Source: Longimicrobiales bacterium (GTDB lineage Bacteria; Gemmatimonadota; Gemmatimonadetes; Longimicrobiales; Gaopeijiaceae). Taken from it: a stretch of DNA of 64,000 bases. The stretch is from NCBI GenBank assembly GCA_965202985.1, contig CBDBCF010000001.1, positions 1,696,001 through 1,760,000 of the forward strand, given 5' to 3'. Position 1 is the first letter of the stretch. Every line of letters begins with the position of its first letter. Below, piece by piece: positions 8,815-21,066 of this stretch. Made by a program: the position numbers and the translations under genes. The notes under the pieces are model-generated. The model was not told the DNA's origin and made no database searches. It was given only the letters and a program-made list of their open reading frames with translations.

Positions 8815-10068
8815 ATGAAGTACATCCCCCGAATCGTCGACGCCGAGCTGGCCGACCGGCTCGCCGCCACCGGCGCGGTCGTCGTCGAGGGTCCCAAGGC
8901 CTGCGGGAAGACCGCGACGGCCGAATCGGTCGCGGCCAGCGCGGTGTTCCTGGACGTGGACGATACTGCCCGGGCCATGGTCGACCTGGACCCGGCGGCC
9001 GTGCTTGCAGGCGATACGCCGCGCCTGATCGACGAGTGGCAGACTGAGCCGGCGATCTGGAACCACATCCGAAGGGCCGTGGACAGGCGAGGCGCCCCCG
9101 GCCAGTTCATCCTCACCGGTTCGGCGGTGCCCACGGACGACATTACCCGCCACACCGGCGCCGGACGACTGACGCGGTTGCGGATGCGTCCGATGTCGCT
9201 CTTCGAGACCGGTCGCTCCACGGGCGAGATATCGCTGGCCGGCCTGTTGGCGGGGAACCCTCAGCGGTCCGCGCGTTCGCACATCGCGGTGCAAGAGCTG
9301 GCGGAGTTGGTGTGCGCCGGAGGCTGGCCCGGGCACCAGGGCCGCAACTTGGCGCAGGCCGTTCGGGCGAACCGCGACTACCTGTCGGAGGTGCAGCGCG
9401 TCGAGGTCCAGCGGCTGGAAGACAAGCGACGGGACCCCGTCAAGGTTGGAAGGTTGCTGCGGTCGCTGGCCCGAAACATCGCCACGCCGGCCACGGTGGC
9501 CACGCTGGCCAGGGATGTGCGCGGGACAGGGCCGTCCTTCAAGGCCAGCACCGCCGCCGAGTACATGGAGGCCTTGGAGCGGTTGATGATCGTCGAGGAT
9601 CAACCGGCGTGGTCGCCGCATCTGCGTTCCCGGACCACGCTGAGAACCACGCCCGTTCGACACTTCGCGGACCCTTCGCTGGCAGCCGCGGCGCTGCGGG
9701 CCACGCCGAACCGGCTACGGGGCGATCTGGAAGTGCTCGGCCTCCTGTTCGAGTCCATGGTGATCCGCGACCTGCGGGTCTACGCCCAGGCCGCCGACGC
9801 CCAAGTGTTCCACTACCGCGAGAAGGACGGCCTGGAGGTGGACGTCATCGTCGAAGACGCCGAAGGAAGGTGGGCGGCGTTCGAGGTGAAGATGGGCGCG
9901 CGGCGGGTCAAGGACGGGATGGCCAACCTGGAACGGGTCGCGGCCCGCATGAGGACCAGCAGCGGCTACGGCGAACCCGGCGCTCTCGCCGTCGTCGTCC
10001 CCAGCGGCTTAGGCGCGGTTCCGCAGGGGCGCGCAGGAGTGGTCCCGTTGGGGGCGCTGGGACCGTGA
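8815..10068 (+). CDS. AAA+ ATPase (AAA_14 + DUF4143)
   Basis: GPKACGKT, LIDEWQ, FILTGS, LFESMV and C-terminal EVD...FEVK. Confidence 0.9.
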   Translation: MKYIPRIVDAELADRLAATGAVVVEGPKACGKTATAESVAASAVFLDVDDTARAMVDLDPAAVLAGDTPRLIDEWQTEPAIWNHIRRAVDRRGAPGQFILTGSAVPTDDITRHTGAGRLTRLRMRPMSLFETGRSTGEISLAGLLAGNPQRSARSHIAVQELAELVCAGGWPGHQGRNLAQAVRANRDYLSEVQRVEVQRLEDKRRDPVKVGRLLRSLARNIATPATVATLARDVRGTGPSFKASTAAEYMEALERLMIVEDQPAWSPHLRSRTTLRTTPVRHFADPSLAAAALRATPNRLRGDLEVLGLLFESMVIRDLRVYAQAADAQVFHYREKDGLEVDVIVEDAEGRWAAFEVKMGARRVKDGMANLERVAARMRTSSGYGEPGALAVVVPSGLGAVPQGRAGVVPLGALGP

Positions 10069-11278: not shown

Positions 11279-14200
11279 TCAGCCCGAAGAACCACCGTCG
11301 CCAACCACTCCCGACAGGATCGTGCCGATGTAGGAGTCGCGTTCCTCTTTCTGGAAGACGACGTTTCGCTTCTTCAACCAGGACTTTTCACGGCCCCAGC
11401 GCTTCTTGACCTCCCGAGAGGACGACACGGACACGATGTAGGAGTTCAGCACCATGTTCGGGTCGCCGAGGCGTTCCTCGATCTCCTTGATCGTCTTGTG
11501 GAATTCGACCTTCTCGTTGTCCACGCCCAGCTGAACAAGCCCCTTCGGGTCGACGAAGGTGACGTACTGCCGACCGCTGGCCAGCAGCCAGAGAATGAAG
11601 TCCGGGTGGAAGTTTCCCGCCTCGAAGAAGCCGATTCCCCGGCCCCGGCTCAAGTTGCGCAGCAGGTAGAGTTCCCTGTCCTTGAAGAAGTTCGAGTTGC
11701 CTTCGCAGTACGCCTTCAAGTCTTCTACGAAGCGGCGCTCGCCCCGATTGAGCGGCGCCGGCTCCACCTCCACCACTCCTGCGCCGTCCACTGCGAGCAA
11801 CGGCGTGTAGAGGTGACGGTCGAAGGACAGCCCGTGGAGACCGAGGCCGGGGAAGGCCCAATCCTTGAGGTCGCCCCTCTCTATCGCTGCTTCCACCTTC
11901 CTCAACGTCGCGACGATATCCTCCTTCGACTTGTCGACGGCGATCCGATAGCCGTACTCGCCGCTCTTCTCACGGACCATGGGAAAGTTGGCGTCGCTGG
12001 CGGTTACTTCAGCGTACTCCAAATGGCGTCGCTCCCAGTCGTTCTTGCGGAAGGTGTAGTAGCGCTCGACGTACTTCTTGAGCAGGGCGAGCGCAATCTG
12101 GTCCCAAAGCCGAACCTTGTCGAAGGAGTCGGCGACCATCTGGGATTCGGGGATCAGCAGGCGATACCATTTGCCGTCTTCAAGCAACTCGTGGATGGCC
12201 GTGCGGGACACGGACAGGTTGTGCCAGCCACGCTCGCTTTTGAAGCGTTCCAGTTCGAAGTAGAGGCGGTCCAGGTCGAGGAAGGCGGTGTGCACTTCCT
12301 CCAGTTTGGCCTCGTGCTTCTCGGCGACGGCCTCCACGTCGGACAGCTCCTCCGACTTCATCGCCTTGATCTTCGGATACCAGTCGAGGACGACCCGTTC
12401 GTGCAGGTAGCTCCTAGCCGGATCGTCCGACGCCATGCCGCCCAGGCTTCGCAGGACCGGCATCGGGCCCAGCTTGCGGAAGGCGTCGCCCGACTCGACC
12501 CTGACGCCGTTGATGACCTTCTTGAGCCGGATCGTCTTGAGCGGCTGCCTTCCGAGGTTCTTGACCACCGGGAACCAGAAGTCCTCCTGCTCGTTGTCGA
12601 CCGACAGTCCTTCCTCGGCGAGAAAGTCCCGAAACTGCGCCATGTAGTCGGCGCGGACTCCGAAGACGTGAAGCGTCTCCAGCGTCTCGACGAAGTCGGG
12701 CCGTTTCAGCCCCTCCGGCAGCTGCGCCCGTGCGCTCCGCTTGAGGCTCATGTCGCATCCCTTGAGCCGCACGCCGCGACCGAAGAGCTGGATGATCTGC
12801 GCCCCTTCCGACTTGCCGATGTGCATCAGCCCCATCGTGCTGACTCGCCAGCTGTTCCATCCTTCGGTGAACTTGCGGGAGCCGATGAGCAGGTTCACGG
12901 TTGAGCCGGGGTTGGCCAAGTCGTGAAAGAGAGAGTCCCCGAACTCCCGCTCGGCGACGGCGAACCCGCTCTGATCGCAGAGCTTCACGAGCTTGGCGTC
13001 GTCGCCCACGTTTACCACGCCGAAGGGGTCGTTGTCGCCCACGCGCAACGCCACTTCACCGGCGGCTCCCTTGAGGTTCTCCACATGCAGCAGCCCGCCG
13101 TTCGGGGCGTTGAAAAGCACCTCCAGCGTCTCGTCGAACACCTGCTCGGCCGACAAGCCAGCATCGTGGAGGTGAGCGAAGCGCCCGGTGAAGATCTCCT
13201 GCTGTTCCGAGTTGCCCAGTCCCTCGTCCAGAATCTCCCGGATGCGGCGGATGCTTTCCGAGCGGTCGGCCACGTAGTCGGCAAGGAAGCGCAGAATCGC
13301 CACCACGTCCGACGCCTCCCGCTTGGACAGGCTCTTGGTGACGCTGCCGCCCACGAACACCCACAGCGGCCGCTCCAAGTTGAAGCGCCGTAGCGTGGAC
13401 TCCTGGTCGCGGTAGAGTCGCTGCTGCTGAAAGAACACGAGCAGGCAGGCGGTAAGGTAGCCCGCCTGCCACTCGGCGTCGCGGTCGTCCTCCAAGTTTA
13501 GAATCCGGTAGTCCTTGCCGAATCCGTCGCCGTAGAACCACTGGTAGGAGTAGTCGAACAACGTGCTGCGGGCGTACAGGTTGGCCAGTTTCGCGCGATT
13601 CGTCCCCCTGACCGCTTGCCCGAACGTGGCCGAGTACTCGAAGGAGAACCCCTTCTCGCAGAGGCGCTCCCGGAAGCGCATCCAAGCGCCGCCCTTGCTG
13701 CTCGCGGCGGTCGCGGCGCCGCGATGCCCCTCGTCGACCAGCACCAAGTTGTTCCCCTCGAAGGCGTCGACGGCGACGGTCTTGTCTCCCATGTCGTCTT
13801 TCAGCTTGGTGACTTCCAGAATATCGACGGTCTGCCCGGTGAAGAGCCCCAAGGAGGCGTTCTTGTCGAAGATGCGGGCCGGGATGCCCGCCGTCTCGAA
13901 CTCGCGCAGGTGCTGGCGCGACAGCCCCTCGTTCGGCGTCAGCAAGATGACGCGGTTGAGGTCGCGTGCGCGGCCGTGGATGTCGAGCAGCTCCAAGTAC
14001 CGAAGAAGGTGAGCGTGCATGAGGAGCGTCTTGCCGCTGCCGGTGGCCATCCAGAACGCCACCTTGTTCAGCTGCTGCCGGGCGTCGGCGGCTTCGTCCA
14101 GCGGCTCCACGCGGTCTCGCTTTCGGACGCCTTCGTTGAACTGGGCGATGTGCCCGTTCACCGCCTCCAGCGTTTGCCGAGGCCGGTTGAAGTACCAGTC

Positions 14201-14554
14201 CAGGTATATCTCCGTGAAGAGCAGCGCGAGGTACTGGAAGTACTTCCACGAGATGGGGCGCAGGCCCCGCGTGATGCGACGTTCGTTGAGGTGCCGGGTC
14301 ACCGACGTGATCGCCTGGTCGTGCGCCAGGAGCACGTCGTCCGGCAGGTTCGGTCGGCGCCCCGCCGGCAGGTGCAGACACAGCGCACGGTGGAAGCGGT
14401 GGACGTTGTCTTCGTCCAACCCTTCAAGGGACTCGTCCCGCAGGTGGCTAGCGAGGTCGTCGAAGCGGTCGACGCCCAAGAGGCCCAGAAGCCACTGGTT
14501 CAGTACCAGTCGCTTGGGGAAGAGGGCGTGCTGGCGACGGCCCACGCCAGCCAT
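11279..14554 (-). CDS. res: Type III restriction enzyme Res subunit
   Basis: FWMATGSGKT, VDEGH, QLFGRGVR and the nuclease motif PDF...VDPKG. Confidence 0.92.
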   Translation of the reverse strand: MAGVGRRQHALFPKRLVLNQWLLGLLGVDRFDDLASHLRDESLEGLDEDNVHRFHRALCLHLPAGRRPNLPDDVLLAHDQAITSVTRHLNERRITRGLRPISWKYFQYLALLFTEIYLDWYFNRPRQTLEAVNGHIAQFNEGVRKRDRVEPLDEAADARQQLNKVAFWMATGSGKTLLMHAHLLRYLELLDIHGRARDLNRVILLTPNEGLSRQHLREFETAGIPARIFDKNASLGLFTGQTVDILEVTKLKDDMGDKTVAVDAFEGNNLVLVDEGHRGAATAASSKGGAWMRFRERLCEKGFSFEYSATFGQAVRGTNRAKLANLYARSTLFDYSYQWFYGDGFGKDYRILNLEDDRDAEWQAGYLTACLLVFFQQQRLYRDQESTLRRFNLERPLWVFVGGSVTKSLSKREASDVVAILRFLADYVADRSESIRRIREILDEGLGNSEQQEIFTGRFAHLHDAGLSAEQVFDETLEVLFNAPNGGLLHVENLKGAAGEVALRVGDNDPFGVVNVGDDAKLVKLCDQSGFAVAEREFGDSLFHDLANPGSTVNLLIGSRKFTEGWNSWRVSTMGLMHIGKSEGAQIIQLFGRGVRLKGCDMSLKRSARAQLPEGLKRPDFVETLETLHVFGVRADYMAQFRDFLAEEGLSVDNEQEDFWFPVVKNLGRQPLKTIRLKKVINGVRVESGDAFRKLGPMPVLRSLGGMASDDPARSYLHERVVLDWYPKIKAMKSEELSDVEAVAEKHEAKLEEVHTAFLDLDRLYFELERFKSERGWHNLSVSRTAIHELLEDGKWYRLLIPESQMVADSFDKVRLWDQIALALLKKYVERYYTFRKNDWERRHLEYAEVTASDANFPMVREKSGEYGYRIAVDKSKEDIVATLRKVEAAIERGDLKDWAFPGLGLHGLSFDRHLYTPLLAVDGAGVVEVEPAPLNRGERRFVEDLKAYCEGNSNFFKDRELYLLRNLSRGRGIGFFEAGNFHPDFILWLLASGRQYVTFVDPKGLVQLGVDNEKVEFHKTIKEIEERLGDPNMVLNSYIVSVSSSREVKKRWGREKSWLKKRNVVFQKEERDSYIGTILSGVVGDGGSSG

Positions 14555-14598: not shown

Positions 14599-15042
14599 TT
14601 GACGGTCATCAATGACCGCCAAAGTAGTCTTGGCGGCCATGAAACGCCGCAAATGGCCGACAAGTTGATTTCGCGGCCATGCGTGACCGCCAAGACGGCT
14701 ACGCGGCCACGAAGCGTCGAAAGTGGCCGGCAAGCCAGCTTCGCGGCCATGCGTGACCGCCAAGAGCTGGAAGTGGCCATGAAACGCCGTAAGTGACTGC
14801 CGAACGAACTTCGCGGCCATCGGTGGCCACCAAGACGGCCGTGCGGTCACGAAACGCCAGAAATGACCGCAGAGCCGATTTCGCGGCCATCCATGACCGC
14901 CAAGACGGCCCAAGCGGTCACGAAGCGTCGAAAGTGGCCGGCAAGCCAGCTTCGCGGCCATGCGTGACCGCAAAGAGCCGGAAGCGGCCACGAAACGCCG
15001 CAAGCGACCGCCGAACGAACTTCGCGGCCATGCGCGACCGTC
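14599..15042. repeat. Tandem array of about six 70-bp units built from inverted GCGGYCAY/RTGRCCGC motifs
   Basis: TCGCGGCCAT at 14671, 14741, 14811, 14881, 14952 and 15022; higher-order repeat at a 211-bp offset. Confidence 0.9.
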
Positions 15043-16153
15043 AGAAGACATCCTTTCCCTCGGCAGCGTTCAGGAGGTCCGGGAACATCAGAATGGTTCC
15101 CCGGCGACCATTGGAGGGATGGAGGACGCGCAGCACGCCGTGGTCAGCCAGCTTCGCCAGGAGCCGTCGGGCCGTGCGAGCCGGGATTTCCGCGTCGGCT
15201 GAGAACCGGGCGCTGTTAAATATCGGATGTTCGAAGATCCAGTCTAGTGTTCGAATGGCGTACTGGGAGCGAGTAACGTCCGCCACCCGCCCTTTCATCT
15301 TGTCGTAGAGGTCAAGGATGTCTCTGGCCTTCGCAAGGTTCTCCTCGGCCTGGGCGTGCACCGCTTTCAAGAAGAACCGACACCACCCCGTCCATTCGTC
15401 GTCGCGCGAAACGGCGAGCAGCCCTTCGTAGTACTCGGCACGACGAGCTTCAAAGTAGGCGCTGATGTAGAACATCGGCCGGCTGATCAGCCCCTGTTCC
15501 GACAAGAACAACGGCACCAACATGCGACCAAGGCGGCCATTGCCGTCCAGGAATGGGTGAAGAGACTCGAATTCGGCGTGGAGCACGGCGAGCTGCACCA
15601 GCTTATCGGGCACTTCGGTGTGGATGTAGCGCTCCCAAGCATCCATGGCCGCCGGCAGCAGCTCAGCGCCAATGGGCACAAAGGTGGCATCCTCTACCGT
15701 ACATCCGGGCCGACCGATCCAGTTAGGAATACGCCGATACTCGCCTGGCGCCTTGCCCTCGCCCCGCACGCTCGAGAGCAGCACTCGATGCGCTTCGCGT
15801 ATGACTCGCTGGCAAAGCGGAAGCTGCTGTAGCATCTGCTCGGCCCGCCTCATGGCGTTGCGATAGTTGATCACCTCGCGGATGTCGTCTCTTCGCCTTG
15901 GAGACGCCGCCTCCTTACCGGCCTCGAATTCGAAGACCTCGCCCATGCTTGCCTCGGTACCCTCGATCTTGGACGACAGAACCGCTTCTTGCATGGTCAA
16001 CGGCGTAAGCAGGACGCGCGGACTGGGAATAGCGGCCAGCATCCCGTCGTACCTGGCCACCGCGGCCACGGCCGGACCAATCAGCGGGAGCACAGCGGAC
16101 CAGTCAATTCGATTCTCGGGCGGAAACTTTCCTTCGTGATAGTGCGTCGCCAT
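15041..16153 (-). CDS. Fic family protein
   Basis: SSKIEGT and HPFLDGNGRLGR motifs. Confidence 0.95.
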   Translation of the reverse strand: MATHYHEGKFPPENRIDWSAVLPLIGPAVAAVARYDGMLAAIPSPRVLLTPLTMQEAVLSSKIEGTEASMGEVFEFEAGKEAASPRRRDDIREVINYRNAMRRAEQMLQQLPLCQRVIREAHRVLLSSVRGEGKAPGEYRRIPNWIGRPGCTVEDATFVPIGAELLPAAMDAWERYIHTEVPDKLVQLAVLHAEFESLHPFLDGNGRLGRMLVPLFLSEQGLISRPMFYISAYFEARRAEYYEGLLAVSRDDEWTGWCRFFLKAVHAQAEENLAKARDILDLYDKMKGRVADVTRSQYAIRTLDWIFEHPIFNSARFSADAEIPARTARRLLAKLADHGVLRVLHPSNGRRGTILMFPDLLNAAEGKDVF

Positions 16154-16155
16154 GA

Positions 16156-19100
16156 TCACTGCTCCCACATCAGTCGGTGAAAGTCGTCCTCAATAAGCCT
16201 CACTGTCCATGTGTCTGTCGGCAACTTGAGGTTTTCGAGGTTGTTGCTGCCGTTGACGTAGACCAGGTCGTACGCTTCATCGTCTCGGCATGATCTCTTC
16301 AGTCTAAACCACTCAGCAAGGACGAGATTGTCCCGCTCAATCCCATCTGGCGACTCTCCGCCAGGTCGATTGCGCCAGATCACGAGTATGCGCCGACCGT
16401 CGGGTGCGGTGCCCGCCACCGTTCGAAACCACCACGGCCCTTCATCCTGTTCCGTCAGGCCGCCCTTCAAGCGCAGACGGCCCTCCCCATCTCGCTCCGT
16501 TTCGGCCTGGTAGCTTCGAGGTGCCGCTATCCGGTGTGTAACAAGCCCGATCAGCCAGTTGAACGTCTCAAGCAAGTCAACATTGAGCTCCCGGCTCTGG
16601 TCAGTACCCGGCTGTCTGACCTTGAGCCGGTAGGCAGTGGGATCCGCAAATGCCGCCACGTTCAGCAACGACCGGCTTCCCCGGACATCTACGTCTAGCA
16701 TGTACGACAGAAAATGCTCTTTCCGAAAATCAGCCAATCGACGATCTGCCAAAGGTGCAAACGTGGGCTGCTCTTCGTCGCGCTGAGGCTCTACAATGTT
16801 GTTAAGAGCATCTTCGTAGGACTCTAGGCGCAGCACCTTAACAACCTGGGGTGATCTTTCAACTTCTTCGGGCGTTGACTCCCGCTTTGGTCTACCGTCC
16901 TTCCATTCCGGTGAGTACACTACTTTCTTGATTCGCTCCAGAAGAACCGATCCAAAATGGTTTCCCATCTCGACGAGAACGAACTTCCGCTTGCCGCCGT
17001 CGTTTCTGTTCATGCATATAACGGCGTGGCCAGTGGTGCCCGCTCCGGCAAAGAAGTCGAGAACCGTCGAATGCGCATCGCAGGATGCCGCTCGAAGGCA
17101 GTCCTCGACTAGCCCAACCGCCTTCGCGAAATCGAAGCGCTTTTCCCGAAACAAGGCCTTCAACGTCTTGGCACCAAGGTTCGCGGATGCATATCGCGTG
17201 TCATCCCACCAGCTCCTGGGCATCGCTTTGGCATCCATCCGAATCTTGAAGTCTATGTCGATTCCACTTCGTCCGTTATCAACTTTTGCCGTGCTACGGC
17301 GCACTCGATAATCACCGGGTGCTGCTGCAATCCGGCCTGGACCTCGATGCCACCTCTTCTCGACTCTGACGCTATCCTGAAGCTGTATTGGCCAAACAGG
17401 CGTCTCATCTGATCGTGGCTCATTGTGAATCAGGTATTCTTGTTTCGCGGAATCCCATTCCATCACTGGAACACGTATAGAGTCATTGTCGGAGACGTAG
17501 ATTGGGAAGAATAATTTGGGTCTGTCCTCTCGCCTATCCCCAGAACCGTGGCGAACGAGGTTGTTCCATGCATACCTGCCATCCTGGTCGTTGTGTGGAT
17601 ACCGCGCAAGTTCCGAACCTGTCTTCTGCAAAGACCCGGGGACGGCATCCGAATTGCCGAAGAACAGCGCATACTCATGAACCGGCGAAAATTGGCCTTG
17701 TGATTTTCGGCCGGCAGGATTCGACCGAACAGTGGCAATGCCTAGCTCTTTATCAAAGTAGTCTTGCAGGAGCAAGCGCAGAAGCGACACTTCTTCATCG
17801 TCGATCGCCACGCATGCAGAACCGTCGGATGTCAAGAGCTCCTGCGCTAGGGATAGCCGATTGGCCATCAATGAAAGCCACGACGAGTCTTTGTAATCGT
17901 TCTTGTAGAGAATCGCCGACGCATCCGTGTTGTAAGGTGGATCGATATAAACCGTCTTGATCGTTCTGCGATATCGTGCGTGCAACAACCTCAACGCTTG
18001 CAGGTTCTCGCCATGGACCAATATGCCGTCGCACTGGTCGTCCAGTGCTCTACGATCTGACAATGCTTCCAGCAGCCGGTCCGTGAACGCGCTGTCGTAA
18101 TGCCGCGTGTCTAGAAGCAAGCTAGGGTACTCCTCAATGCCGTTCGGTTGCGAGGGGCCGTGATGCTCCAGGAATGAGGGTATAGGTCCGTTTTGCGGCG
18201 CTTCCCCTGGCGCGGAACAGCCTAGCAGCTCCCTCCACTCCCTGCGCTGGCCGTCATTCGCTACTATCTCGGCATGGAACGCTTCTGGAATGCATCCCAA
18301 GCGAATGCAGTACGACGTTTCGACCACGAACTTCTTCTTCAACCACAGGGCCTTCTGGAAGTCTTCTAGTTGCGCCAAGAAGTCGATGATCTTCGTGCCG
18401 ATACGGCGGACGACCTTGATCTTCGACAGATGTTGCTTGACCTGAAGAGCGGCTGCGTGCTCGACGTCGCCCAGACGCATGACCTCGTTGTTGACGTAGA
18501 AGTCCAGCTCGCGACGCAGGAAGCCACCCAGGTCCTTGTGGATGAAGTAGTCGAACGTGTGGCGCGCTGTGTAGCGGTTGAGATGAAGACGGAAGCGGGA
18601 ATAGTCGGCCGGGTTGCCGTCCGCCGCGATGTGTGGTTGGCCAAGCGCTTGGAGCCAGCGAGCAAACGGACGACCCTTGGTCTGTCGCAAGCGATCCTCG
18701 GCCTGGGCGAGCAGATCTGTTTGTGCAGGGGGTCTCTTCTTTTCGTTGCGCTGTTTGTCGGGCCAATCGGCAAGGGTGACCGGACGGTATTCGAAGTTGA
18801 GGACCAGCTCCTTGCCTTGCTCGCCGTCCTGCTCGGCGATGAAGTCGGTGTCTCGAAGCACAAATACGCGTTTGCCGGCCGCGGACGGCTTCAGGTTTCC
18901 GTGTTCGCCTTCCGTGGCACCCACCAGTTGGAAGCGAACGCGCATCGGATCGCTCTCGCCGGGCCGGAGCCGAAACGCGTAGTCGCGCAGGTATTCCGTG
19001 GTCTTGATGTAGTACTGGTCCGCGTTCGCCCAGTGGAGCTTGACTTCCTCGCCCTCGTACGGAATGGCGTACACGCCGGGCTTGTACACGCGCTTGCTGA

Positions 19101-19566
19101 TAAAATCCCCGTCGGAGTAGTAGCGACGGAAGAATCCGTATAGATGGTCGTAGACCTCGACTTCGAGCGCTGCTACGTCGACGGCGTGGTCGAGCCGGGC
19201 CCTGAGCTCCTTGACGGTCGTAGAGTCGTCGGGGTTCACGCCTAGGGCTTCGGCGCTTCTCAAGGCGTCGGCCAATTCTCCTTCCAGTACGGCCCTGTCC
19301 GCCGACTGGTACTGAGACAGCGCGTCGCGCACTTGCGGCAACAGGTCCTGTTCCAGGAACTTCGTGATCTCGCCGCTCTTGGCGTGCATGATGCGATAGA
19401 ACCCGAAGTCCAAGTCGGGTTGGTCGAGCTGGAAGAGCTCTTTCAGGAGGGCAACCAGCTTGTCGAACTGCGGCGTGCGGCCGTCGGTGTCCGGCAGGCG
19501 AACCCTGGCCTCCTTGCGATAGAACTTCCCGACGCTCGCCTGGGAGAAGTCGTACTCGGACTTCAT
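16156..19566 (-). CDS. mod: Type III R-M Mod (N6-adenine MTase) with an N-terminal antitoxin-like peptide
   Basis: FQLDQPDLDFGFYRIM, YIDPPYN and LDFFAGAGTT; begins MKSEYDFSQASVGKFYR. Confidence 0.92.
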   Translation of the reverse strand: MKSEYDFSQASVGKFYRKEARVRLPDTDGRTPQFDKLVALLKELFQLDQPDLDFGFYRIMHAKSGEITKFLEQDLLPQVRDALSQYQSADRAVLEGELADALRSAEALGVNPDDSTTVKELRARLDHAVDVAALEVEVYDHLYGFFRRYYSDGDFISKRVYKPGVYAIPYEGEEVKLHWANADQYYIKTTEYLRDYAFRLRPGESDPMRVRFQLVGATEGEHGNLKPSAAGKRVFVLRDTDFIAEQDGEQGKELVLNFEYRPVTLADWPDKQRNEKKRPPAQTDLLAQAEDRLRQTKGRPFARWLQALGQPHIAADGNPADYSRFRLHLNRYTARHTFDYFIHKDLGGFLRRELDFYVNNEVMRLGDVEHAAALQVKQHLSKIKVVRRIGTKIIDFLAQLEDFQKALWLKKKFVVETSYCIRLGCIPEAFHAEIVANDGQRREWRELLGCSAPGEAPQNGPIPSFLEHHGPSQPNGIEEYPSLLLDTRHYDSAFTDRLLEALSDRRALDDQCDGILVHGENLQALRLLHARYRRTIKTVYIDPPYNTDASAILYKNDYKDSSWLSLMANRLSLAQELLTSDGSACVAIDDEEVSLLRLLLQDYFDKELGIATVRSNPAGRKSQGQFSPVHEYALFFGNSDAVPGSLQKTGSELARYPHNDQDGRYAWNNLVRHGSGDRREDRPKLFFPIYVSDNDSIRVPVMEWDSAKQEYLIHNEPRSDETPVWPIQLQDSVRVEKRWHRGPGRIAAAPGDYRVRRSTAKVDNGRSGIDIDFKIRMDAKAMPRSWWDDTRYASANLGAKTLKALFREKRFDFAKAVGLVEDCLRAASCDAHSTVLDFFAGAGTTGHAVICMNRNDGGKRKFVLVEMGNHFGSVLLERIKKVVYSPEWKDGRPKRESTPEEVERSPQVVKVLRLESYEDALNNIVEPQRDEEQPTFAPLADRRLADFRKEHFLSYMLDVDVRGSRSLLNVAAFADPTAYRLKVRQPGTDQSRELNVDLLETFNWLIGLVTHRIAAPRSYQAETERDGEGRLRLKGGLTEQDEGPWWFRTVAGTAPDGRRILVIWRNRPGGESPDGIERDNLVLAEWFRLKRSCRDDEAYDLVYVNGSNNLENLKLPTDTWTVRLIEDDFHRLMWEQ

Positions 19567-19943
19567 GTCGAGGACTTCTCGTACTGCCGACGTTCGGAGG
19601 GCGTGGATCGGCGGGCAGAGATGATTCGCAAGGTGGTCTCGTCAGGGCCGGAGTCGCGTTCGGTGTGGATCACAATCAGCACTTGTCCGTCTCGTGCGCG
19701 GCCCATCGTCACCCACCTTTCCTCGTGTTCGCTGTGGTCCTCGTCGGGAATCGACAAGGCGCCGGGGTCCTGGAACACGCTGGCGGCCAAGTCGAACGCG
19801 ATGCCGTGCTTGCGGCGGTTGGCGACGGCTTTGGCAGGGTCCCAGTCGAAGCGGAGCGACCAGCTCGCGCCGACGCCGGCACGGTCGTCACAATGACCGT
19901 TCGGGGCCGTGGAGTCAAGGTTCACCACAAGCTCCCCAGTCAT
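19563..19943 (-). CDS. brnT: BrnT family ribonuclease toxin
   Basis: FDWDPAKAVANRRKHGIAF...EERWVTMG...RIISARR; start uncertain. Confidence 0.9.
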   Translation of the reverse strand: MTGELVVNLDSTAPNGHCDDRAGVGASWSLRFDWDPAKAVANRRKHGIAFDLAASVFQDPGALSIPDEDHSEHEERWVTMGRARDGQVLIVIHTERDSGPDETTLRIISARRSTPSERRQYEKSST

Positions 19944-21066
19944 AAGCGCGCCGTCGCATCTCCATTGGGGTCAGGCCGAGGACTTCGGCGGCGCGTTCGA
20001 GCGACACGCGGTTGCTTTCCAGGGCCTGTCGCACGAGCCGGGACAGCCGGTCGTTCACGAAGTCGTGGGGCGAGACGCCGTCCGGTTCGCCGGATCGGAG
20101 CCAGTCCCAGGCGAACTCGCTGCGCTCCACGGCCGCCGGCTGATCTTCCGTGCGCAGCGTTCTGCCGAACCGCTCCTTGTACTGGTGCCGAAACGCCGGC
20201 CACGCGGCGCGAGTCGCTCGGCCCGACGCGACGAGCCGGAACAGAACCGTCTTGTAGCTGACCTTGAACATTCGCTTGACCTTCAAGACGCGAACGATCA
20301 GCGGCTGGCCGCGGGTTGCCGACCACTCGGGTCCGAACGCCGGTTCGGGCATCAAGAACTCGCTGGCGAACGCGTCGGCTTCCCGCTCGGCGTCGTGGGA
20401 AAGGTCGGTCGCGTTCCGGGCGTAGTCGGAGGGATGAAGCAGCAGGTGTCCCAGCTCGTGGGCCGCCGTGAAGATCCAGCGCTCCACCGAGAGGCGTCGC
20501 CACGTGTTCGCGACTACGGCCGGACCACTGCCTCCGGCTCCGACGCCGAGGCCGAAGAACGAGTCTCGCGGCTTGTCCAGCAGCAGCACCTTGACGCCGT
20601 TGTCTTCGAGGAGGCCGCAAACGTCGCGAATCGGCTCGCGGGGGCCAAGGCCGACGGCATGTCGTGCGCGCCTAGCGGCCTGGATCGGCGAACTGGCCCA
20701 CGCCGGGTCCCAGGACGCTCCGAACCGAAACGGCAGGCGCTCGTCGAGACGCGCTTCCATCTCCTCGTAGCCGGCCAGCCACTCCGAGACCTCCGCCAGA
20801 ATCTGGCCGCGGGAGTGGACCTTGGACCGTGGTCGGAACCTCACGTTGTCCAGCGGCGGCGCGACCGCCACCAGATCGGCGACCTGCACGCCGAGCGCTT
20901 CCGCCAGCGCCCGCAGGGTTCCCGCGCGCGGCAGAGTGGTCCCCCTCTCGGCCTTTCCCACCGTGACCCGAGAGAGCCCGGCGTTCTTGGCCAGCTCCTC
21001 CTGCGTGAGGTCCCGGCCCAGTCGCAACCGGGCCAGATTCGCGCCGATCCGGGCTTCGTCCGTCAT
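19915..21066 (-). CDS. XRE HTH fused to an ImmA/IrrE (M78) metallopeptidase
   Basis: LTQEELAKNAGLS HTH and FTAAHELGH...EREADAFASEFLMP. Confidence 0.93.
   Translation of the reverse strand: MTDEARIGANLARLRLGRDLTQEELAKNAGLSRVTVGKAERGTTLPRAGTLRALAEALGVQVADLVAVAPPLDNVRFRPRSKVHSRGQILAEVSEWLAGYEEMEARLDERLPFRFGASWDPAWASSPIQAARRARHAVGLGPREPIRDVCGLLEDNGVKVLLLDKPRDSFFGLGVGAGGSGPAVVANTWRRLSVERWIFTAAHELGHLLLHPSDYARNATDLSHDAEREADAFASEFLMPEPAFGPEWSATRGQPLIVRVLKVKRMFKVSYKTVLFRLVASGRATRAAWPAFRHQYKERFGRTLRTEDQPAAVERSEFAWDWLRSGEPDGVSPHDFVNDRLSRLVRQALESNRVSLERAAEVLGLTPMEMRRRAYDWGACGEP

Follow-up and report, generated by a model that had tools for sequence, protein, structure and literature searches.

Locus organization

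We analyzed a 64,000-nucleotide stretch of DNA from a Longimicrobiales bacterium (GenBank assembly GCA_965202985.1, contig CBDBCF010000001.1, positions 1,696,001 to 1,760,000; hereafter the window). It contains a gene for a ribonuclease (RNase) toxin of the BrnT family directly upstream of mod, the methyltransferase gene of a Type III restriction-modification (R-M) system, and the Mod protein opens with a peptide homologous to the N-terminus of BrnT's antitoxin partners. Five genes on the same strand make up the locus, and the ends of the first four overlap or abut (Table 1).

The 3' end of brnT reads ...TCG ACA TGA and the next open reading frame (ORF) opens ATG AAG TCC, the two sharing an ATGA on the minus strand (19566-19563). 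This second ORF (16156-19566) encodes 1136 amino acids, beginning with MKSEYDFSQASVGKFYRKEARVRLPDTDGRTPQFDKLVALLKELFQLDQPDLDFG. Its product is a Type III methyltransferase (PADLOC MTase_III E 2.7e-175; Pfam N6_N4_Mtase E 2.2e-24). The order of its motifs is Type III-like: IDPPYNT (motif IV, DPPY) at about residue 541 precedes DFFAGAGTTG (motif I, FxGxG) at about residue 837. The original prediction, made from the sequence alone, had placed the brnT stop and the start of a fused ORF in one ATGA at 19563-19566, and both the coordinates and the sequence hold. It had also described an uninterrupted run from this start into Mod, and codons 2-59 indeed contain neither ATG nor GTG. The only alternative starts for Mod are a TTG at codon 52 and an ATG at codon 60, both within the conserved first helix of Mod.

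Table 1. Features of the brnT-mod locus, in window coordinates (XRE HTH, XRE-type helix-turn-helix; RHH, ribbon-helix-helix)
Feature	Position	Strand	Remark
RmrA-like gene, XRE HTH and M78 (ImmA/IrrE) Zn-peptidase	19915..21066	-	Stop lies within the 5' end of the brnT ORF
brnT, RelE-fold RNase toxin gene	19563..19943	-	126-amino-acid ORF from the ATG at 19943; Pfam BrnT_toxin E 2.4e-25
ATGA stop/start overlap of brnT and the mod ORF	19563..19566	-	Read from the sequence
Mod codons 1-25 (MKSEYDFSQASVGKFYRKEARVRLP), BrnA-derived predicted toxin-binding peptide	19492..19566	-	Homology to free partners
Linker DTDGRTP, Mod codons 26-32	19471..19491	-	In place of the antitoxin RHH domain
Type III Mod proper, from residue 33	16156..19470	-	Equivalent to where unfused homologues begin (MSQKYEKL...)
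Fic/AMPylase gene of SoFic type, separating mod from res	15041..16168	-	5' end overlaps the stop of mod
Tandem repeat of a 70-bp unit (5.8 copies), between the Fic gene and res	14633..15040	.	TRF
res, Type III Res (helicase-nuclease)	11279..14554	-	PADLOC REase_III 2.2e-215; Pfam ResIII 9.7e-10

Origin of the Mod N-terminal peptide

For comparison, brnT loci were gathered from the genomes of 60 relatives and from metagenomes (80 loci; BrnT 43-61% identical). The ORF downstream of brnT was readable at 77 of the 80 metagenome loci and is usually 66 amino acids long (for example MKDEYDFSNAERGKFYRPGAQLIPPVHLDPEVL...; a fuller example is MKDEYDFSNAERGKFYRPGAQLIPPVHLDPEVLSYL...LVNELLRKDIELIE). A -4 ATGA overlap is the commonest arrangement, found in the majority of these 77 free brnT-antitoxin pairs. 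A regular expression for the partner motif, MKxEYDFSxxxxGKFYR...LP, matched 56 of the 77 free partners, and most of the remainder are near variants by eye (RYDFS, HYDFS, EYNFS). The closest free partner, at locus L077 (MKREYDFSHAVRGKFYRKGAELRLPIYLD...), is identical to the Mod N-terminus at 18 of 25 residues (pair E 1e-11). In the relatives' genomes, partners beginning M(K/R)xEYDFS are assigned to Pfam BrnA_antitoxin or CopG_antitoxin (E 4.9e-15, 1.2e-12, 1.4e-14 and 2.7e-8). These matches bear out the earlier identification of the peptide as the N-terminus of BrnA/CopG-type partners of BrnT.

The resemblance ends after a shared RLP, where the window protein continues RLP/DTDG and the free partners RLP/VYLD. 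In the free partners the RHH-type Pfam matches cover about residues 26-60 and are weak, all falling below gathering scores. Residues 1-40 and 1-60 of Mod gave no Pfam match even at E 10, and an RHH continuation is encoded in no frame of the region; the peptide is followed by the linker and then by the Mod helix. The DNA-binding half is absent, as had been claimed. Judged from sequence, the peptide derives from a BrnT partner, of which it keeps the N-terminal, non-RHH segment but not the DNA-binding half. Because the RHH domain is absent, we describe it as a fragment of the BrnA/CopG family and not as a member. None of the free partners at the 77 metagenome loci is joined to a large protein. 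Three longer downstream ORFs were considered as partner fusions and rejected, as they look like frameshifts or spurious frames.

Recurrence and conservation of the fusion

Homologues of Mod were taken as the best 120 of 6950 matches (E <= 0.001), each a 90%-identity cluster from ENA, JGI, NCBI or Logan. The original prediction had proposed a search for other brnT-mod fusions, and 10 of these 120 clusters carry the intact peptide, starting MKS[ED]YDFS.A.VGKF(Y/H)R and continuing into a linker. Another four retain degraded remains of it (P0010-P0013). The great majority (105 of 120) begin a few residues before the KL..LLKELFQLD helix, usually as MSQKYEKL.... The last of the 120, P0080, is an unrelated SNF2 protein and was set aside. 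A methionine at the old Mod start is kept in 0 of the 10 fused homologues, so the fusion is obligate.

The junction is not confined to one assembly. A check of the reads for misassembly had also been proposed, and the junction (19383-20098/20100) is spanned, with 0, 13 and 10 differences, by Logan contigs that come from three runs in three studies. They cover brnT, the ATGA and the peptide. Two of the runs are labelled sponge and marine metagenome, and one of the three is possibly the window's own source.

The peptide is well conserved across the ten fused proteins. Residues 1-17 have a mean pairwise identity of 0.92 and residues 1-25 one of 0.80; of the first 20 positions, 14 do not vary. The linker has a mean pairwise identity of 0.44, with insertions and deletions of up to about 10 residues. 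The first Mod helices reach 0.90, Mod 81-500 reaches 0.68 and the protein as a whole 0.59. This pattern suggests that the peptide is under selection, as a scar would be expected to drift as the linker does.

Two BrnT clusters agree with a fused Mod in the length of their longest contig: this length is 19197 for both BrnT P0125 and fused Mod P0006, and 42670 for both BrnT P0128 and fused Mod P0009. A back-translated peptide pattern was found at one place in genome contigs, in the relative G001 described below, and at none in metagenome contigs or in viral contigs. A phmmer search with peptide 1-30 against 1.84 billion representatives returned only P0241 and P0243 at E <= 0.001 and no further fusion family. 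These two proteins (60 and 63 amino acids) consist of the peptide and linker followed by unrelated residues, and may be frameshifted Mods or free mini-antitoxins. A separate search with the peptide gave only two short ORFs, P0241 again and P0242; these look like truncated fused Mods and were set aside as free antitoxins.

The toxin and other antitoxin candidates

The BrnT_toxin match is full length (profile positions 1-77 of 77, protein residues 34-117) and scores 89.1 bits against a cut-off of 34.5. It is the sole BrnT match in the 3.86-Mb, two-contig genome, which is 92% complete. An alignment of 102 family sequences has 11 invariant columns, and the window protein keeps every one of them (W34, K38, H46, F50, E74, R76, R106, I108, S109, A110 and R111). 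Close orthologues, 75-94% identical, are intact in eight clusters, and the PDB entry 7vd7, named 'toxin', matches at 2.3e-15. From these features BrnT looks functional. In one sponge-metagenome contig a C is inserted behind 19933, after the ATG at 19943 and ahead of the BrnT domain, and the close homologue P0122 begins at the position of a GTG at about 19925. The true brnT start may therefore be this GTG.

No separate antitoxin gene had been noticed beside brnT, and the genome as a whole agrees. BrnA_antitoxin (PF14384) and CopG_antitoxin (PF12441) had no match genome-wide at E <= 0.1, in a genome that is 92% complete. With a free 66-amino-acid BrnT partner as the query, the best place in the genome was the Mod N-terminus itself (E 0.013).

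The gene upstream of brnT encodes a possible second candidate. Its RmrA-like product matches Pfam HTH_3 (8.2e-15) and Peptidase_M78 (2e-15) and has a HELGH motif. In PADLOC it matches RmrA (5.9e-38), and also the capP and capH models and an R-M Control_protein (5e-7). The NCBIfam spr1629 repressor/antitoxin model matches at 7e-18, below its cut-off. This protein may be an alternative or additional neutralizer or regulator of BrnT, and it might regulate the whole operon. By tblastn (E <= 1e-3), an RmrA-like gene lies near brnT at 0 of 29 loci in relatives and 0 of 80 metagenome loci, about 44 of the latter having at least 1.2 kb of upstream sequence. As no RmrA-like gene accompanies the other brnT loci examined, BrnT is normally served by an EYDFS partner.

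Predicted binding of the peptide to BrnT

The complex of BrnT with the Mod N-terminus, whose modelling had been suggested with the original prediction, was predicted from BrnT 27-126 and Mod 1-45, each supplied as an alignment, together with three controls. The ipSAE was 0.66 (runs 0.66, 0.73 and 0.64), and the best of the three controls gave 0.00. Binding is predicted at this mark. Among solved complexes 116 of 157 reach it, and among mismatched pairs 2 of 215; both counts apply only roughly here, as custom alignments were used. Between runs, at least 91% of contacts agree, with a partner pLDDT of 67 or more.

On the Mod side, the confident interface takes in residues 1 and 3-25 and excludes the linker and the Mod helix. 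On the BrnT side it comprises residues 27-34, 57-65, 77-80 and the C-terminal 109-124, among them S109 and R111, which are invariant, and E117 and Y121, which are nearly so. Mod residues 1-25 are accordingly placed on BrnT by the model as a predicted binding segment. By sequence, the PDB holds a BrnT homologue as a lone chain only (7vd7), with no partner homologue and no like complex. The predictor is therefore unlikely to have reproduced a solved complex known to it.

When Mod(1-330) is modelled alone, residues 1-31 are unstructured (pLDDT about 30, below 50) and the first helix begins at residue 32. The model is of moderate quality (mean pLDDT 66, pTM 0.48), and the disordered tail that it predicts is weak evidence.

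Natural variants of the locus

Two relatives, G001 and G003, carry altered forms of the locus. Each adjoins the same DUF4143 ATPase gene as the window locus does.

In G003, Res, Fic and Mod are kept, and the RmrA-like gene, brnT and roughly the first 12 codons of the peptide are missing. Its Mod begins at a new ATG (MGDPYLHDGARVHLPDGGSDQ...), and that genome, 98% complete, has no BrnT match. G001, from the window's genus, keeps the Fic gene and a full-length RmrA-like gene (86% identical). Res is gone, as is Mod apart from about 45 codons, and brnT carries an internal deletion of about 160-170 nucleotides. Between the RmrA-like gene and this brnT remnant lie 1.9 kb of other DNA. The same brnT-deleted form is also present as a contig in run X1, at a contig depth above that of the intact form. 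The peptide-coding stretch is kept at 86% nucleotide identity. The decayed G001 locus occupies L038 1-1600 and L040 9559-12499. In the protein P0013, an in-frame brnT fragment (SIPDDDHSEHEERW...) is joined straight to Mod without the peptide.

In these two genomes and one protein, loss of the EYDFS core of the peptide or of Mod goes with a lost or broken brnT. Among the variants examined, none has an intact brnT beside a peptide-less Mod.

Neighbouring genes

The cognate res gene is on the same strand as mod and is set apart from it by the SoFic gene and the repeat array. These two features and the RmrA-like gene are additions to what the original prediction had described. The SoFic gene is supported by PADLOC (SoFic E 4.1e-110) and by Pfam Fic_N and Fic. 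It is retained in both G001 and G003. In the more distant relative G050, Mod (with the MSQKYEKL start) is followed directly by Res, without a Fic gene and without brnT. Given this bare pair, we take Mod-Res as the core of the locus and the other genes as additions.

The repeat has 74% matches between copies and can alternatively be read as a 211-bp unit in 1.9 copies. It has no further occurrence elsewhere in the genome, and may influence res expression. A promoter and terminator scan gave no prediction on the minus strand, and there is no RNA run among the listed sequencing runs with the locus.

The DUF4143/AAA_14 ATPase gene that flanks the locus in the window's genome (G000), G001 and G003 lies at 8815-10068 on the plus strand. 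For an ORF at 468-1853 on the minus strand, the N6_N4_Mtase match is weak (2.4e-5) and stays under the cut-off. Contig 2 of the same genome carries another Type III Mod-Res pair, which is unfused (L042; G000, 568000-584000). Its Mod and Res share 36% and 37% identity with their counterparts in the window, and no brnT adjoins it.

Proposed mechanism

The Mod of this locus carries a conserved fragment of a BrnA-like partner, without the RHH half, in an obligate and recurrent fusion, and we found no other BrnA-like gene in the genome. We infer that Mod would neutralize BrnT, and that an addiction or guard role may follow. The reading that we prefer, with a probability of about 0.6, is that Mod is a tethered antitoxin and that BrnT is latent only while Mod is intact. 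An ancestral canonical brnT-brnA pair would have adjoined a Type III R-M operon. A deletion would then have taken the RHH half of brnA together with Mod's own start, so joining the first 25 brnA codons, via a short flexible linker, to the Mod N-terminus. Mod would now be translated solely from the start codon of brnA, and the ancestral ATGA would couple it to brnT. The retained peptide, as the toxin-binding segment, would wrap onto BrnT and keep the RNase latent. The RHH half of BrnA is DNA-binding and dimerizing, and Type III Mods are dimers; the Mod dimer probably stands in for the RHH dimer as the scaffold. BrnT would be released upon deletion of the R-M genes, or when the Mod N-terminus is removed, blocked or occupied.

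More tentatively, the locus could form a guard circuit, an extension that we regard as possible and somewhat doubtful. The BrnA peptide displayed on Mod would be the tether that holds BrnT. Mod that is disabled, degraded or occupied by a phage would free BrnT, and the infection would be aborted. Cutting of the linker by the M78 peptidase could also free BrnT, with phage or DNA damage as the conceivable cue for the HTH/M78 protein. Through this tether, Type III R-M genes that are otherwise readily lost would become addictive.

Several observations count against Mod as a tethered antitoxin. Binding of the peptide to BrnT is a matter of model confidence. A stable enzyme is an odd antitoxin, as classic post-segregational killing needs a labile one. 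Among the nine other fused Mods, brnT can tentatively be placed beside only two, through equal lengths of the longest contigs. The clade is also narrow: both genomes that supply DNA evidence belong to the window's genus, and the runs that contain the locus are sponge and marine metagenomes. Both brnT co-occurrence and codon-level selection rest on few cases. Each co-loss could be explained by one deletion over neighbouring genes, and there are three cases, two of them from one genus. As each could be a single deletion, the co-loss is suggestive and not decisive. Finally, RmrA-like proteins are described as antitoxins for diverse toxins, and this one could neutralize BrnT instead (PMC10440598; 10.1101/2022.05.11.491447).

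Alternative explanations

If the RmrA-like protein is the real neutralizer or regulator of BrnT, the two genes would form a RosmerTA-like pair and the Mod peptide would be a leftover of the deletion, an evolutionary scar with little or no role. Such a pair would fit the PADLOC RmrA match (5.9e-38), the overlap of the RmrA-like gene with the brnT start on the same strand, the loss of both genes together in G003 and the range of toxins just mentioned. A scar should drift, however, and peptide residues 1-17 are 92% identical where the linker is 44% and the Mods are 59% identical. Predicted binding of the peptide to BrnT also reaches the mark, the best control being 0.00. The tblastn search turned up no RmrA-like gene at the 29 and 80 other brnT loci, and in G001 this gene is full length although brnT is dead and 1.9 kb of other DNA separates the two. 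On this evidence we consider it unlikely that the RmrA-like protein is the real neutralizer and the peptide a mere scar. An RmrA-like neutralizer or regulator and a tethered antitoxin can be combined in one locus.

The peptide could also be a neutral scar that is kept as the start of Mod translation. The brnA start and its coupling to brnT would then serve Mod expression, there would be no sequestration, and BrnT would be weak, inactive or tolerated. Mod has no usable start before codon 52, none of the ten fused homologues kept the old methionine, and the decay variants (P0010-P0013, G001 and G003) are compatible with such a role. A start needs few codons, though, and not 17 near-invariant residues that match a toxin-partner motif. 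BrnT keeps its 11 invariant columns and is intact in eight close clusters, and the Mod of G003 readily gained a new ATG once brnT was gone. These points make an explanation by translation start improbable. That the fusion is an assembly or annotation artefact, either a chimeric join or a frameshift hiding a small brnA gene, was raised solely because the assembly is of the metagenome type, and no support for it was found. The same junction occurs on contigs of three runs from three studies, the fusion occurs in 10 protein clusters from several sources, the peptide-coding stretch is kept in G001, and no frame encodes the RHH continuation. The chance of an artefact is close to negligible.

Relation to known systems

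The canonical BrnT/BrnA pair (brnTA of Brucella abortus; PF04365 with PF14384/PF12441) has the same toxin family, the same toxin-first order and the same ATGA overlap as the window locus, and the partner motif MKxEYDFSxxxxGKFYR...LP is common to both. The window locus differs in that the RHH half of the partner is gone and the toxin-binding segment sits covalently on a Type III Mod of 1100 amino acids. With the DNA-binding RHH half gone, autoregulation by the antitoxin is lost here; the HTH of the upstream RmrA-like protein may have taken over this transcriptional control. RosmerTA (RmrT with the HTH/Zn-peptidase antitoxin RmrA) is similar in that an RmrA-like gene adjoins a toxin gene in a defence locus. 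It differs in its toxin: the one here is a BrnT, and a partner motif proper to BrnT is encoded downstream of it.

The original prediction drew an analogy with PrrC, an anticodon nuclease that the Type Ic R-M enzyme EcoprrI is described as keeping latent (PMC1484252). The likeness is one of logic only: the gene for an RNase toxin lies within an R-M locus, and an R-M protein would keep the toxin silent. PrrC is an ABC-ATPase/anticodon nuclease (ACNase) unrelated to BrnT, whereas the window toxin is a 126-amino-acid BrnT without an ATPase domain. PrrC and EcoprrI associate non-covalently, without a borrowed antitoxin peptide, and their R-M system is of Type I and not of Type III. Activation by a phage factor has been shown for PrrC; for BrnT-Mod, such release is suggested by analogy.

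Remodelling of BrnT modules by fusion has a precedent. Single-chain BrnT-BrnA fusions with RHH or HTH domains are reported (PMC11980606). They join the toxin to a whole antitoxin, unlike the window locus, where the toxin-binding peptide alone is joined to a methyltransferase. BrnT-like genes are also described just upstream of CoCoNuT Type IV restriction systems (PMC11090510). This arrangement resembles ours in placing a BrnT-like gene upstream of a restriction system, and the accessible part of that paper mentions no antitoxin peptide on the restriction protein. Our literature search, which covered accessible portions of the sources, found no report in which an antitoxin peptide is joined to the methyltransferase of an R-M system; Table S2 of PMC11980606, a table of fusions that lay outside the search, might list such a case.

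If Mod is indeed the antitoxin of BrnT, the locus would be a natural case in which a toxin-antitoxin (TA) switch is covalently coupled to a restriction enzyme. It would mean that a short toxin-binding antitoxin segment can be moved onto an unrelated protein, whose presence then conditions survival. The test system is small, a 25-residue peptide and a 100-residue toxin. It would offer a compact, testable model for two long-debated ideas: that TA modules stabilize defence genes, and that they back R-M systems against phage anti-restriction.

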